Source of the DNA: an archaeon
GTDB lineage: Archaea > Iainarchaeota > Iainarchaeia > Iainarchaeales > Iainarchaeaceae
Length of the DNA stretch: 14,172 bases
Reading direction: 5' to 3'
Assembly: GCA_038046625.1 (NCBI GenBank)
Contig: JBBSVV010000009.1
Span: forward strand, 1-14,172
Shown: positions 2,878-11,574 of the stretch, piece by piece
How positions within the stretch are numbered: position 1 is the stretch's first letter
Layout: each line of letters opens with the position of its first letter
The notes under the pieces: model-generated
Seen by the model: the letters and a program-made list of their open reading frames with translations, nothing else
Database searches by the model: none
What the model was told of the DNA's origin: nothing
Program-made: the position numbers and the translations under genes

Positions 2878-3498
2878 ATGAACCTTAACCTGGTGCAGTT
2901 CTGGGAGCCCGAAATTCTTGGGCATTACGCCCCGGAATTCAAAGACGAGGCAATAATCGTTTGCTCGGATTTCACGGAAGCCGAACTGAAGGAATTCTCG
3001 CAGAAAAAAAGGAAATGCAGCACAAAGTTTTTTTCCTGCAAGCTCCTCGCGCGCAAGGATAACAATGAAATGCAGCGCTTCAGGAGGCTCGCAGATTTTG
3101 TTGCGGTGCAAGGAAGCTCGCCTGAAATGTGCTTCTGGGCTGGAACCCAAAAGGCGGATTTGCTTGTGCAGCCGTTCTCTTCGCAGAAGAATTTTCTTGA
3201 TTCGCAGACAATAACGGTTCTGAAGCAGAACAATGTTTTCGCCGCGTTTTTGTTCAGTGATTTCCTTGCGGCGCGCTCCTTTGAGCAGTCGCAGCTCCTG
3301 AAGAACGCGATGCTTTCACTTAAATTGCTTGACAAGGGCGGCGCGAAAACGCTTTTCTTTTCAGGTGCGCGCAACGAGCAGGAACTCCGCGCCGCAAAAG
3401 ACCTTTCCTCGTTCGCGGTTTTCCTCGGGATGAAAAAGGATTCCGCTTTGAAGGCTGCGCGCAAAAGCACTGAAGAATTTCTGGAGAGGGTTAAATGA
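2878..3498 (+). CDS. rnp3: RNase P protein component 3 (Rpp30), divergent
   Basis: About 200 aa in the conserved position after rpl15e. Carries Rpp30-like C-terminal FSGARNEQELRAAKDLSSFAVFLGM plus DFVAVQG and KADLL segments. Confidence 0.78.
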   Translation: MNLNLVQFWEPEILGHYAPEFKDEAIIVCSDFTEAELKEFSQKKRKCSTKFFSCKLLARKDNNEMQRFRRLADFVAVQGSSPEMCFWAGTQKADLLVQPFSSQKNFLDSQTITVLKQNNVFAAFLFSDFLAARSFEQSQLLKNAMLSLKLLDKGGAKTLFFSGARNEQELRAAKDLSSFAVFLGMKKDSALKAARKSTEEFLERVK

Positions 3499-4037
3499 AA
3501 ATCCCGCCCATGGAAGAGTGCGAGGCTCTGATGGCGGAGTTTGAGGTGCCGGAACACATCAGGAAGCACACGGAAGAGGTGCGCAAAGTCTCGAATTTCC
3601 TCGCAAAAAAAATTTCCTCGAACGGAAAGAAAATAGATTTGGGTTTGGTTGACCGCGCCTCCTTGATGCACGATTTCCTCAAGATGCATTGCATCAAAAA
3701 TAACTGCAGGCATGCTTTGGAAGCCGGCAAAGTAATGGCCGGGCGCGGTTATGCCGAGTTCGGCGAGGTTCTCAAATTGCATGGCCTTGAGGAAGTGAAC
3801 AATTTTGATTCGAAAACATGCCTTGAGGCGAAGATTGTCTGGTATGCGGACAAGCGCGTGAACCATGGCGGCATTGTTTCCCTGAAGGCGCGTTATGATT
3901 ATCTGAAGCAACGCTATGGTTCAATGGGCGAACAAAAACTGAGGGAAATACTTTCAACGGAGAAGAGCGCTTTCGGCGTCGAGAAGGAAATTCTTGGCCT
4001 CGCCAAAGTGAAAAGCGATTTCGGGGGTTTGAAATGA
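3495..4037 (+). CDS. HD-domain metal-dependent phosphohydrolase
   Basis: HIRKHT...ASLMHDFLK...RHA...LH...IVWYADKRV motif series. ATGA overlaps with the genes on both sides. Confidence 0.9.
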   Translation: MKIPPMEECEALMAEFEVPEHIRKHTEEVRKVSNFLAKKISSNGKKIDLGLVDRASLMHDFLKMHCIKNNCRHALEAGKVMAGRGYAEFGEVLKLHGLEEVNNFDSKTCLEAKIVWYADKRVNHGGIVSLKARYDYLKQRYGSMGEQKLREILSTEKSAFGVEKEILGLAKVKSDFGGLK

Positions 4038-4513
4038 AGGCAACGAAAAAAGAAATGAATCCCATTCCCCCGACCTTGAGGGGGAAGAAGCGTTACGTGA
4101 AGTTCAGGCTTGTTTGCATTGGTGCGAGCATAGCGCGCCATGGCCCTGCGCAGCAGGGGCAGTCGCACGCCGCAAGCCCGCGGCGGGAGGGCATGCGAAC
4201 TGAGGTTCGCCAGGCCAGTGCGAAGCACTGTCCCTCGCTCCCAACCGGCGAAAGGGTTGTGAGGGAACAGGATGCGAAGTTTTCGTTGTACAGTTCTTTT
4301 GCGCGGCTGTTCGGCGAACAAGGAATTGCGGAGCAGAGGCTCTGGCTCATAAAGTGGTTCCCTGAAAGGAACGAGGGGATTGTGCGCTGCGCGCTTGAAA
4401 AGGAGGAGCAAGTGAAGGCGGGCCTTTTGTTCCTGCGCGAGGTTCATGGAGAACCCGTGGTTCCGCTGATTGAAGGCGTTTCGGGCTCTTTGAAGAAGCT
4501 GAAGCTCCGTTGA
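4034..4513 (+). CDS. rnp2: RNase P protein component 2 (Pop5/Rpp14) with a ~42-aa internal insertion
   Basis: Pop5 motifs PPTLRGKKRYVKF, LFGEQG, GIVRC, GVSGSLKKL. Residues ~29-70 are extra relative to the usual family layout. Confidence 0.92.
   Translation: MKATKKEMNPIPPTLRGKKRYVKFRLVCIGASIARHGPAQQGQSHAASPRREGMRTEVRQASAKHCPSLPTGERVVREQDAKFSLYSSFARLFGEQGIAEQRLWLIKWFPERNEGIVRCALEKEEQVKAGLLFLREVHGEPVVPLIEGVSGSLKKLKLR
4119..4244. repeat. 126-nt multi-hairpin palindromic insertion element, in frame within rnp2
   Basis: Ends pair (TTGG/CCAA, GCGAG/CTCGC) and enclose four hairpins: 4144-4158, 4168-4185, 4195-4210, 4216-4230. Positions 4162-4192 match 11476-11506 at 28/31 nt. Confidence 0.72.
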
Positions 4514-4552
4514 TAGCGGAAAATATTTATTCTGTGCAAGCATTCTTCTTTC

Positions 4553-5044
4553 ATGATTGAGCGCCCGAGAACTCCCGGAAACACAAGAACTACCCTTCTG
4601 AAACTTGTTTTGAAGCATCAAGATATTTCAGCCACGCATAGAGGGGAGCGGCTTTATGGGCACGTGCCTGCTTCAAAGTTCCCTGTTTTTATGCGCGAGC
4701 TTGCAGATGTGTTGTTTCATGATGAGCGCCTCGCGAAAATAATGGTAGGAACACGGGGGGCTCCTGAGAGGATTCATGGTATAATGGCTTATGCGCTGGA
4801 AAGGGCACGGAATGACCCGGAAAAAGCGAGGGCTTTTTTGGATGCAAAAATAAGGTTTGTGACCGGTTTGAAGGCTGGCAGAAGTATTTTTTTCAGCTCC
4901 AAGCAAATAAGAAGATACTCCAAAAAACTCGGCATTCCTGGTGAAAATGTTTGGCGTACCAGCAGTGATTTTGCCCATATGCTAGGTTTCCTTACTGAAA
5001 ACTTTGTGGCGGAACTGCAGTCTGCGTGGATTAAAATAAAGTGA
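4553..5044 (+). CDS. Hypothetical basic protein (163 aa, ORFan-like)
   Basis: Clean ATG ORF filling the rnp2-psmA gap, with a TATA-like ATATTTATT about 30 nt upstream. No family recognised. Confidence 0.7.
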   Translation: MIERPRTPGNTRTTLLKLVLKHQDISATHRGERLYGHVPASKFPVFMRELADVLFHDERLAKIMVGTRGAPERIHGIMAYALERARNDPEKARAFLDAKIRFVTGLKAGRSIFFSSKQIRRYSKKLGIPGENVWRTSSDFAHMLGFLTENFVAELQSAWIKIK

Positions 5045-9403: not shown

Positions 9404-9663
9404 TGCCTTCGGCAGAAATAACCGCCGATTTTCCTGATTCGAAAAGTGCGGGGAACGCGGCAAGGTCATTAAAGGTTGAGCTTAAGCATGGCTTTGAAAG
9501 GCGCTCGAGGGCCTCAATAAAAACCAATAAAACTGTTGTTTACCTCACGATTAGTGCTTTGGATGAAAGCGCTTTAAAGGCTTCAAGGCATTCTTTTGAA
9601 AGGCTCTTAGGGCTTTGCAGCGGAATTTCTTTTATGGGGGGAACAAAAAATGGCGGACGTTAA
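9400..9663 (+). CDS. pcc1: KEOPS complex subunit Pcc1
   Basis: About 87 aa with Pcc1-like SL..E...RS...LTISALDESALKAS.HSF.RL. Sits between rpoP and pfdB with an ATGA overlap on the rpoP stop; ATG 9403 is the alternative start. The track's 9262 start is an over-extension. Confidence 0.85.
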   Translation: MMPSAEITADFPDSKSAGNAARSLKVELKHGFERRSRASIKTNKTVVYLTISALDESALKASRHSFERLLGLCSGISFMGGTKNGGR

Positions 9664-10006
9664 CAAGTCCATTCAGGAGTTCGAGAGGGGCAGGATACAG
9701 CTCTCGGCAATAGAGAGCCAGAGGCAGTCAATGGAGATACAGTCCAAGGCCATTGAAGAAGCCATTACCGAGCTTAAGGCCTCAAAGGAACAGAAGGTTT
9801 ACAAGGCCGCGGGAAACATCCTCATTCTTTCCGACGCAAAAAGGGTTGAGAAGGAACTAAAGGAACAAAAGGAAACAATGGACCTGCGCGTCAAAACCCT
9901 GAAGAAGCAGGAAGAGGCAATGCTTGACAAATTGAACAAGCTCAAGGCGGACATAGAAGGATTCCAGAAGCCCGCCGAATCAAAATCAAGTGAAAAGGAA
10001 GAGTAA
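9650..10006 (+). CDS. pfdB: Prefoldin subunit beta
   Basis: Coiled-coil arms around KVYKAAGNILI, then ELKEQKETMDLRVKTLKKQE; conserved synteny. Confidence 0.94.
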   Translation: MADVNKSIQEFERGRIQLSAIESQRQSMEIQSKAIEEAITELKASKEQKVYKAAGNILILSDAKRVEKELKEQKETMDLRVKTLKKQEEAMLDKLNKLKADIEGFQKPAESKSSEKEE

Positions 10007-11444: not shown

Positions 11445-11574
11445 ATTCCAAATTTTTTAACCTGAGAAAACAATTGTCCCACGCCGCAGGCCCGCGGCGG
11501 CAGGGCGGCTATCTTCGTTTGGACTCGATAGGCCTTCATTCCAAATTTTTTAATCTGAGAAAACAATTATCGCA
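11445..11574. repeat. 37-bp imperfect direct repeat (11445-11481 and 11538-11574) duplicating the 3' end of the Zn-ribbon gene
   Basis: attccaaattttttaaCctgagaaaacaattGtcCca versus attccaaattttttaaTctgagaaaacaattAtcGca: 34/37 identical, period 93 nt. Confidence 0.9.
11476..11506. repeat. Second partial copy of the palindromic element found in rnp2
   Basis: gtcCcacgccgcaGgcccgcggcggCagggc versus 4162-4192 gtcGcacgccgcaAgcccgcggcggGagggc. The CGCCGC/GCGGCG stem is intact in both. Confidence 0.8.

Follow-up and report, generated by a model that had tools for sequence, protein, structure and literature searches.

The RNase P protein Pop5 of a tiny groundwater archaeon of the family Iainarchaeaceae (Iainarchaeia/Diapherotrites, DPANN) carries 44 extra residues, which probably represent one composite copy of a small, GC-rich, non-coding hairpin element that is translated and tolerated. 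The element would have entered the gene after the split from the sister species, and transcription and translation would run through it without interruption, giving a basic, disordered surface loop. Its persistence would reflect that RNase P keeps working only where an insertion into this length-tolerant loop is in frame and free of stops. The gene is located in the window, i.e. the whole stretch of 14,172 nucleotides that was analysed (contig JBBSVV010000009.1 of assembly GCA_038046625.1), and the corresponding genome, hereafter G000, is 84.6% complete. The features to which the text refers are the following.

2878..3498, + strand: intact gene for Rpp30, the partner subunit of Pop5 (Pfam PF01876, E 5.3e-15)
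4034..4513, + strand: insert-bearing gene for Pop5 (RNase P protein component 2), taken from the open reading frame list, 159 codons and a stop
4124..4259, + strand: composite hairpin element, whole, with borders from the family consensus and from the empty-site alignment with the same-genus relative G001
4124..4139, + strand: 5' module GCGAGCATAGCGCGCC, a variant of the family head GCGAGCGAAGCGAGCC, with 22 matches in the genome at up to 3 substitutions
4144..4158, + strand: hairpin A, CCCTGC-GCA-GCAGGG, a perfect 6-bp hairpin
4163..4168, + strand: first TCGCAC linker, from comparison with simple and long copies
4168..4185, + strand: hairpin B, CGCCGC-AAGCCC-GCGGCG, with 12 matches in the genome at up to 3 substitutions
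4195..4210, + strand: hairpin C, GCGAAC-TGAG-GTTCGC, a perfect 6-bp hairpin
4216..4230, + strand: hairpin D, CAGTGC-GAA-GCACTG, the variable hairpin found 5' of the linker in every minimal copy
4235..4242, + strand: conserved linker TCGCTCCC, with invariant columns T, C, G ... C, C
4243..4259, + strand: conserved terminal hairpin AACCGGCGAAAGGGTTG, in which the Pop5 frame reads T-G-E-R-V-V
11482..11537, no strand assigned: second, different hairpin element composed of a hairpin B variant and a CTATC...GATAG module, with flanking direct repeats

The 159-aa product of the insert-bearing gene matches Pfam PF01900 (RNase_P_Rpp14) over residues 78-157 only (E 1.3e-10, 41.7 bits with a cut-off of 23). 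Its AlphaFold2 model was assigned by Foldseek to Pop5 of P. horikoshii (2czv_C, E 1.1e-10, target-normalised TM-score 0.81), and the best-ranked matches are the Pop5 chains 2czv_C, 3wz0_C, 2av5_A and 6k0a_A. The N-terminal RGKKRY motif is kept, R16-Y21 being invariant across 43 sequences, and every invariant Pop5 residue is retained in the insert-bearing protein. When the insert is left out, the comparison with G001 gives a dN of 0.11 and a dS of 0.63 (dN/dS ~0.17); purifying selection has acted on the gene outside the insert. A single Pop5 match is present in G000, together with an RNase P RNA gene (C15:1626-1999, 374 nt, 93.9 bits), and Pop5 was detected in 34 of the 41 related genomes searched.

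Alignment of Pop5 with its relatives revealed that 18 of 19 loci lack the insert, which is absent at the same site in the sister species G001 and in 17 further relatives; on the protein level it is confined to one of 43 clusters, corresponding to one species-level cluster. With respect to G001 the net insertion amounts to 132 nt, or 44 codons, and the reading frame through it is open. An initial annotation of this DNA had proposed an in-frame element of 126 nt at 4119-4244, the removal of which would restore a normal-sized Pop5 of 117 aa. Deleting that stretch does preserve the frame, but the size falls short of the net insertion, and relatives measure 106-136 aa, mostly 113-114 aa. The right border had also been set too early, as 4235-4259 (TCGCTCCC followed by AACCGGCGAAAGGGTTG, 25 nt) is the conserved 3' end of the repeat family and is identical in four other copies of G000, on contigs C13, C36, C47 and C53. 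Because these last 25 nt of the insert recur unchanged elsewhere in the genome, the residues TGERVV are encoded by the element. Other copies and contigs match the Pop5 element from 4123/4124 on and through 4259, the 5' border being uncertain within 4119-4127. GC content reaches 71% at 4120-4239, compared to 48% for the genome. In G001 the Pop5 site is empty, yet a simple copy of the element precedes the gene by 57 nt, at a position unoccupied in G000; element sites thus differ between two species of one genus.

No target duplication could be detected around the Pop5 copy: a search for direct repeats of at least 8 nt was negative, and the best flank repeat, 8 nt long, is equalled in 39 of 200 shuffles. 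The two ends are not connected by an inverted repeat and feature local hairpins only, and no near-identical full-length twin was found in the genome. Both the missing duplication and the missing twin weigh against the preferred reading.

In agreement with the initial annotation, the insert can be assigned to a family of non-coding, hairpin-rich elements present in many copies. Partial matches to it occur in at least 8 contigs of the genome, and the Pop5 insert has in common with other copies identical stretches of 25 nt and 27 nt and a 46-nt stretch at 89% identity. A minimal copy consists of a variable hairpin, a linker TCG(C/T)NCCC and a terminal hairpin AACNG-NCGAAA-CNGTT-G, and this combination, with AACNGNCGAAANNGTTG as its terminal hairpin, fits exactly at 4216-4259. 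The genome holds 19 terminal-hairpin copies according to the exact pattern and 24-26 according to looser ones, and copies occur in both orientations. On a broader scale, 215 genomes of the phylum were searched, of which 18 contain the exact terminal signature and none a control pattern: 16 of the 23 genomes of its own family (G000 counted) and 2 of the 9 of a second family, the rest being free of it. No published description of the element family, or of in-frame carriage in DPANN archaea, was found in the literature searched.

The Pop5 copy is a mosaic in which a 5' head, another unit that is truncated, and two extra hairpins lie ahead of the 3' unit (4214-4259). The best partial copy of the 5' part is at C48:14707-14752 (89% over 46 nt), and hairpin A recurs with a GAA loop in C48, C7 and G001. 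In simple copies, such as the one upstream of Pop5 in G001, the terminal hairpin directly follows the first TCGCAC linker, while in Pop5 66 nt (4169-4234) separate the first from the second linker; the long copies used for comparison were C32:10755, C48:9800 and C51:28966. The four perfect 6-bp hairpins are located where they had first been reported (4144-4158, 4168-4185, 4195-4210 and 4216-4230) and exceed both the genome background of 0.34 per 136 nt and the dinucleotide shuffles, which average 0.46 hairpins and contain four in 24 of 2000 cases. The same annotation had described a self-contained structure closed by the stem TTGG-t-GCGAG / CTCGC-tc-CCAA. This stem appears neither in the minimum-free-energy fold nor in the centroid fold and, from a reading of the printed copies, does not covary across them. 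The fold energy of the insert as a whole is not unusual: the RNAfold comparison suggested at the outset gave -60.8 kcal/mol versus -56.6 +/- 4.0 for shuffles (z = -1.04), with 32 of 200 shuffles folding equally well.

Hairpins of the family were counted sequence by sequence, since the MAFFT alignment set subtypes out of register; RNAalifold on that alignment recovers the terminal stem only. A stem of at least 6 bp beside the linker is present in 32 of 47 copies, compared to 6% of shuffles, and 34 different arm sequences were counted. Non-Watson-Crick pairs in the hairpin stems comprise 9 G.T, 0 A.C and 6 others, and with respect to one pair of the terminal stem 28 copies divide into 15 with C:G and 13 with A:U. 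As stems covary and G.T pairs outnumber A.C pairs by 9 to 0, a strand-specific single-stranded form is suggested, which points to one particular single strand, the one carrying the family 3' end as TCGCNCCC-AAC...GTTG, as the functional form.

The family behaves as a mobile element that would act via one single strand. Mobilisation through ssDNA, as first proposed, finds some support in the stem data. No linked HUH/RAYT/IS200-like transposase, for which a search had been suggested, was detected, Y1_Tnp having no match in the 85%-complete G000. A moving form of ssDNA type is possible at best, a form templated by RNA is doubtful, and movement by something else is a somewhat stronger candidate that still falls short of being probable. 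A Y1 transposase is present in 9 of the 23 family genomes, but the IS200-like elements found in relatives terminate in other hairpins that lack the family signature. In G000 only a 37-nt solo end of such an element was found (C53:11237-11273), and TnpB (PF07282) gave no matches. Contig C6 of G000 ends where G001 has an IS200-like element, so that an unassembled IS in G000 is possible. A search for reverse transcriptases (PF00078) gave no match in any of the 23 family genomes, 6 of them with a completeness of 90% or more. Flank duplications are long and variable (12-40 nt) in 16 of 42 family copies; because the remaining 26 fell below the criterion, long target duplication is not universal in the family. 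We consider it rather unlikely, though worth stating, that the family represents an undescribed class of prokaryotic mobile DNA, strand-specific, preferring hairpin loops and gene ends, and often duplicating tens of target bases with neither a reverse transcriptase nor a recognisable transposase. Under the same speculative reading RNase P would have been remodelled, with one insert in Pop5 and two in its RNA, and the basic Pop5 loop may contact the RNA.

Gene starts, junctions between genes and RNA genes account for most copies, some of which adjoin tRNA genes or sit inside structured RNA genes. Copies read through in frame lie in the C-terminal tail of an FKBP and in a C-terminal extension of S19e, others form leaders of trpG, of an epimerase gene and of eIF2-gamma, and a mini-ORF bridges leuC and leuD. 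Among 24 copies in G000, the frame is open for at least 225 nt on both sides only in Pop5, in the FKBP tail and in one unannotated ORF, and no mid-gene copy was seen among ~30 copies in relatives. The Pop5 copy is the only one seen to split a conserved domain; for this reason, its tolerance is inferred from its survival.

The location of the insert in the protein is compatible with such tolerance. Model confidence (pLDDT) is above 95 at residues 19-28 and 78-159 and 53-60 in the insert, which AlphaFold2 renders as coil connecting strand 1 to helix 1 in a confidently predicted Pop5 fold. The loop position proposed in the initial annotation thereby finds support in the model. Residues 29-76, a stretch of 48, include 6 Arg, 1 Lys and 3 Glu. 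In three other lineages, too, this loop is extended, by ~33 aa in G003, ~20 aa in P0006 and ~6 aa in P0023. A common origin of the G003 loop insert was rejected, as its DNA shows no hairpins and no similarity to the present insert beyond shuffles (score 17, which 210 of 500 shuffles attain, their average being 16.6).

Several other explanations of the extra residues have to be weighed. Removal of the insert from the Pop5 mRNA, either as a bulge-helix-bulge (BHB) intron via the tRNA-splicing endonuclease or by other splicing, would yield a normal-sized protein and gains some plausibility from element copies adjoining tRNA genes and sitting within structured RNA genes. Archaeal BHB introns are known in mRNA from cbf5 of Crenarchaeota and resemble the present case as structured intervening sequences in a protein gene. 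They are marked by two 3-nt bulges with a 4-bp helix between them at the exon-intron borders, and their removal restores the frame. Here, in contrast, the borders offer no in-frame BHB and the insert belongs to a repeat family occurring in both orientations. A scan of all site pairs (i 4090-4149, j 4215-4289) in both geometries, in which a candidate was defined by 4 central pairs, two flanking helices of at least 2 bp and an in-frame length, returned no full in-frame candidate, and the two-helix candidates nearest to 132 nt (142, 143 and 157 nt) break the frame. Moreover, an open, in-frame insert is not required if it is spliced, and no Rfam family matches it: in the window and four loci only 5S rRNA reached the gathering score, and 4090-4290 gave two chance-level matches only (E 1.6 and 7.7). 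Splicing is thus very unlikely. Scarcely more credit can be given to the idea that Pop5 is inactivated or being so, with RNase P working without it or with a second copy in the unassembled 15% of the genome. The Pop5 insert is the only element copy seen to split a conserved domain, and the genome is incomplete, but 159 open codons, the single Pop5 match in G000, the preserved invariant residues, the low dN/dS, the confident core fold and the wide occurrence of Pop5 in related genomes argue against its loss. An intein was rejected, as the 44-aa insert has no Hint domain, residues 29-77 contain no Pfam domain, and the insert ends in ...ERVV before R, lacking a terminal Asn and nucleophile; inteins carry Hint domain blocks and are roughly at least 130 aa long.

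Least credible of all are two readings that dispense with an inserted element. An assembly chimera made by a repeat could be imagined because repeated modules make up the insert and because the assemblies of other runs include contigs that stop next to the element, at 4102-4109. The artefact considered at the outset is contradicted by contigs of two runs spanning 3900-4600, namely X1 (11,754 nt) and X6 (894 nt, another sample, 1 difference), and by X7 from a third run, which covers 4109-4488, with the proviso that the runs may share one campaign and that X1 is possibly the source of this DNA. No empty-site joint was found in contigs of four runs, contigs being prone to drop rare variants. Equally hard to sustain is a native, lineage-specific expansion of the Pop5 loop that is repeat-like by composition only. 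The variable loop length in three other lineages and the G003 insert without DNA similarity would fit it; the identical and near-identical stretches common to other copies, and a signature without control matches in 215 genomes, would not. The insert may instead have been co-opted, as an RNA-binding basic loop on an element-expanded RNase P RNA or as an mRNA structure regulating Pop5 synthesis, which is improbable, though the least so of the rivals. The excess of Arg would suit this role, and the family has inserted twice in the RNase P RNA gene, once within the P2-P4 linker; 22 of 23 nt are common to hairpin B and the reverse complement of an insert in that gene. In the M. jannaschii holoenzyme, the P2-P4 linker belongs to the central packing that the (Pop5-Rpp30)2 tetramer organises (PMC6565675). 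However, the P2-P4 insert is also present in G001, whose Pop5 is insert-free, the Pop5 insert is limited to one species-level cluster, and a basic peptide rich in Ala, Gly, Arg and Pro is expected from any GC-rich DNA.

The translated and tolerated hairpin element remains the preferred reading, and it has partial counterparts among known systems. The byp elements of Magnusiomyces are GC-rich hairpin inserts in mitochondrial genes which are skipped by the ribosome, whereas the Pop5 insert is open and in frame with nothing forcing bypass; programmed bypass was rejected, there being no stop after a take-off codon. IS200/IS605 and REP/RAYT elements are not known to make target duplications. REP/BIME sequences with RAYT and the PATEs of IS200/IS605 resemble the family in their mosaic of short hairpins, strand-specific structure and lack of terminal inverted repeats, but differ from it in that no Y1 transposase was found in G000 and 16 of 42 copies have long duplications. 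SINE-type retroposons share a conserved 3' end, a truncated or variable 5' part, variable flank duplications and strand polarity with the family, for which no reverse transcriptase was found in 23 family genomes and which has no A-rich or other simple tail. Prokaryotic MITEs are likewise small, non-coding, multi-copy, taxon-restricted and polymorphic in their sites. They are defined by target duplications of 2-10 bp and by terminal inverted repeats whose minimum length is 10-15 bp (PMC11602168). Both are missing from the Pop5 copy. In the family the duplications are longer (12-40 nt) and variable, and while the 3' end is a conserved hairpin, the 5' part varies.

A further parallel, drawn on behaviour (in-frame coding insertion) and not on sequence, is with the Rickettsia palindromic elements (RPEs), which PMC10969869 presents as short repeated hairpin elements that can lie in frame in conserved proteins, encoding a fold-compatible peptide. 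In-frame carriage of repeats in conserved proteins is already well known from Rickettsia. RPEs often lie inside ORFs with a conserved peptide, while here the majority of copies occupy gene starts, junctions and RNA genes, a domain being split in Pop5 alone; moreover, RPEs have a bacterial host and the present family a DPANN archaeal one, with long flank duplications in 16 of 42 copies. Hairpin inserts in essential protein genes are also reported for the coding palindromes of Nematomorpha mitochondria (PMC6649704). The Pop5 copy can be regarded as a natural experiment, with the empty site provided by the sister species, archaeal Pop5 homologues already solved and a reconstitution assay established in other archaea (PMC6565675, PMC9371926). 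With the partner RNase P RNA also expanded by the family, the case allows a direct test of the way in which a selfish hairpin element turns into new sequence, in both protein and RNA, within an enzyme that is ancient and essential, and it offers a defined substrate for finding the insertion machinery.

In the same window, the second hairpin element at 11482..11537 is flanked by 37-nt direct repeats (11445-11481 and 11538-11574) that are 92% identical.

The insert in the Pop5 gene, which encodes a protein of RNase P, is a real feature of the sequence, and the initial annotation was right about its kind, a repeat-family element in Pop5; its borders needed correction. The genome of the window (G000) holds a single Pop5 match, with the Rpp30 gene in the region directly upstream. 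The Pfam RNase_P_Rpp14/Pop5 match is confined to residues 78-157 of the protein and the invariant family motif RGKKRY lies within residues 5-28; between these two parts is the insert stretch, with a GC content of 71% against 48% in the genome. The region is spanned by contigs from two runs and, over 4109-4488, by those from a third, which speaks for a sound assembly as far as the contigs show.

Features of the window
4034-4513, + strand: Pop5 ORF, 159 aa
4124-4139: 5' head of the Pop5 copy, preceding hairpin A
4144-4158: hairpin A, perfect 6-bp stem
4168-4185: hairpin B, perfect 6-bp stem
4195-4210: hairpin C, perfect 6-bp stem
4216-4230: hairpin D, perfect 6-bp stem
11482-11537: second, different hairpin element of another subtype, about 56 nt

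All four perfect hairpins proposed from the sequence were located in the insert at their places, compared with a mean of 0.46 such hairpins in dinucleotide shuffles, of which 24 in 2000 contained at least four. The insert as a whole is not unusually stable, its folding energy being ordinary for its GC content (z = -1.04, equalled by 32 of 200 shuffles), and the closing stem originally suggested is absent from the predicted structures.

As anticipated, an empty site exists in a close relative: the Pop5 of G001, a sister species of the same genus, lacks the insert, and the site measures 15 nt there and 147 nt in the window, the net gain being 44 codons (132 nt). Of 19 Pop5 loci in relatives, 18 lack the region; the remaining one, in G003, has an insert of its own, different from this one and about 33 aa long. 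Among 43 Pop5 protein clusters (E <= 1e-10) this insert was found solely in the window's own, the remaining 42 having lengths of 106-136 aa. Because the 25 nt ending at 4259 (TCGCTCCC plus AACCGGCGAAAGGGTTG) recur identically at four further places in G000, and the matches of other copies and of public-assembly contigs start at 4123/4124, the element spans about 4124-4259, with the residues TGERVV encoded by it; these repeat-family ends overturn the unit of 126 nt at 4119-4244 delimited at first. Some 3-5 nt of the target were apparently replaced at insertion, so the junctions are not definable to a single base. Neither a target duplication nor a terminal inverted repeat was found at the Pop5 copy.

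The expectation of further genomic copies was borne out, as the 126 nt match partially on many G000 contigs. A search of G000 for the linker and terminal hairpin returned 24-26 copies with looser patterns; 19 copies fit the pattern CCCAACNGNCGAAANNGTTG exactly. This exact pattern is present in 18 of the 215 genomes searched in the phylum, namely in 16 of the 23 of the window's own family (G000 counted), in two of nine in a second family and in none elsewhere; a reversed control pattern gave no match in the same genome set. Source databases label the proteins of this group Candidatus Diapherotrites. The minimal copy is made of a hairpin of free sequence, a linker TCG(C/T)NCCC and a terminal hairpin. 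In Pop5 the copy has a composite make-up: nucleotides 4214-4259, the 3' unit, follow the standard minimal plan, and upstream of them stand the head, hairpin A, a first TCGCAC linker that lacks a terminal hairpin, and then hairpins B and C. The order of TCGCAC, hairpin B and, further on, TCGCNCCC is also present in long copies on the G000 contigs C32, C48 and C51, and modules are nested within the loops of other modules, e.g. at C5:33393, C3:38253, C13:14443 and C48:14707. Contig C48 bears both a copy adjoining the 5S rRNA gene and a composite island (9478-9800, about 320 nt) with at least seven hairpin modules, terminating in a terminal hairpin directly 5' of an ORF without Pfam match.

Stems of 6 bp or more that end no further than 6 nt from the linker were present in 32 of 47 copies, compared with 6% of shuffles; eight copies scored zero, being of the CTATCGAG...GAAGATAG type, whose loop exceeds the size allowed by the stem search. 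With 34 different arm sequences, the variable hairpin is conserved as a structure rather than as a sequence. Since the non-Watson-Crick pairs in 32 distinct stems comprise nine G.T, no A.C and six others, the strand on which the structure probably matters is the one reading ...TCGCNCCC-AAC...GTTG, rather than its complement. In the 28 aligned copies, one position of the terminal stem is paired as C:G 15 times and as A:U 13 times.

Insertion sites are polymorphic within one genus, the Pop5 site being filled in G000 and empty in G001. The latter carries a simple 65-nt copy 57 nt upstream of the Pop5 start (L010, G001:C43), and a diverged second version of the stop/start junction flanks it; G000 has no copy there but a plain ATGA overlap. 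When the sequence directly after GTTG was compared with that preceding the element, a significant flank repeat of 12-40 nt was detected in 16 of the 42 copies with enough flank, a score reached by none of 200 shuffles. The second element of the window is likewise flanked by 37-nt direct repeats, 92% identical (whole block 11445-11574). Around Pop5 itself, the G001 region about 57-160 nt upstream of the start holds, after the upstream gene, a further GC-rich hairpin besides the 65-nt copy; in the window, a 180-aa ORF (3495-4037) with no Pfam family at E <= 0.001 lies between Rpp30 and Pop5, whose start it overlaps by ATGA.

Long flank duplications do not fit the known behaviour of IS200/IS605 or REP/RAYT systems. 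The linked HUH/RAYT/IS200-like transposase that had been envisaged did not emerge: in G000, which is 85% complete and whose contig C6 ends where G001 has an IS200-like element, there was no match to the Y1/HUH transposase (PF01797) or to TnpB. Nine of the 23 family genomes do encode the former, with seven matches in G001, and the relatives' IS200-like elements were considered as a source; their end hairpins differ and are without the family signature, the sole terminal-hairpin match in nine fetched IS loci lying 1.5 kb from the transposase gene. Reverse transcriptase (PF00078) was found in none of the 23 family genomes, six of which are at least 90% complete. An intron of the bulge-helix-bulge (BHB) type was likewise rejected, as none of the candidates in a splice-site scan of the Pop5 insert had both flanking helices and kept the frame, and an intein is ruled out by the insert size and the absence of any domain; no Rfam family matched the insert. 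The family differs from MITEs, as these are defined in PMC11602168, in having neither their type of inverted ends nor short fixed duplications, and no cognate Y1 transposase, reverse transcriptase or BHB motif accompanies it. The closest in behaviour to the Pop5 copy are the Rickettsia palindromic elements (PMC10969869). The family as a whole is outside every defined class tested. No published description was found in full-text searches on Diapherotrites/DPANN repeats and archaeal in-frame palindromic elements; a large MITE census including DPANN genomes (PMC11602168) could contain some copies. The family and its mode of moving are the interesting problem remaining. Y1-bearing IS200-like elements of the relatives (G001, G010, G018 and others; L068-L076) often sit at contig ends, G000:C6:1 being a contig break at the place of one in G001, and a 37-nt solo end (C53:11237-11273) is all that is seen of them in G000.

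The most likely role of the copy in Pop5 is that of a passenger which is translated and tolerated. It is in frame, stop-free and adds net 44 codons; by our own estimate, about one in seven insertions would be in frame and open at ~70% GC (1/3 x ~0.42), and therefore survival in an essential gene needs no special mechanism. In the AlphaFold2 model (43 aligned sequences), pLDDT exceeds 95 in strand 1 (residues 19-28) and from the start of helix 1 (78-101) to the end of the protein, and is 53-60 in the insert, which is modelled as coil; the best structural matches were archaeal Pop5 chains. The predicted fold places the insert between strand 1 and helix 1, in keeping with the loop location first proposed. 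This loop is longer in three other lineages (G003, L011:120-551, ~33 residues; protein clusters P0006, ~20, and P0023, ~6), and the G003 insert has neither hairpins nor similarity to the element. Outside the insert, comparison with G001 gave dN 0.11 and dS 0.63. Other copies are likewise read through in frame, one within the C-terminal tail of an FKBP, one within the C-terminal extension of S19e and others as leaders of trpG, an epimerase gene and eIF2-gamma, and one spans the leuC/leuD junction, bridging the genes by a mini-ORF. Of the copies examined, 24 in G000 and some 30 in relatives, that of Pop5 is the only one between secondary-structure elements of a conserved domain, and this position is its special feature.

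The RNA partner of Pop5 is also affected, bringing the RNase P of G000 to three inserts in total (one in Pop5, two in the RNA).

G000:C15:1626-1999 (fetched locus L077:1501-1874): RNase P RNA gene, 374 nt

The seven shortest of 18 family RNase P RNA genes measure 253-268 nt, and both element-derived inserts of the 374-nt gene are antisense to the RNA. The G000-specific insert, which fills the P12 region, corresponds to a minimal copy in reverse complement. The second, roughly 68 nt long, sits in the P2-P4 linker, between the P2 3' strand and conserved region V, is identical in G000 and G001, and its reverse complement has 22 of 23 nt in common with hairpin B of the Pop5 insert. According to PMC6565675, the (Pop5-Rpp30)2 tetramer of the M. 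jannaschii holoenzyme organises a centre at which the P2-P4 loops of both RNAs pack, and eukaryotic RNase P has stem P19 at this position. The Pop5 loop is basic (6 Arg, 1 Lys, 3 Glu), and its contact with the new RNA segments is a matter of speculation; G001 bears the P2-P4 insert but no Pop5 insert. Because the RNase P RNA genes of other element-rich genomes are likewise enlarged, up to 508 nt in G018, structured RNA genes look like favoured targets of the element. The G018 gene (L094, G018:C32:5026-5533) has several GC-rich inserts, one of which, in the P3 loop region, bears the GCGAGCGAAGCGAGCC head of the family, and in the alignment to the Rfam model the 3' end of the G000 23S rRNA gene (L077:1-353 = G000:C15:126-478) contains an insert of 38 nt.
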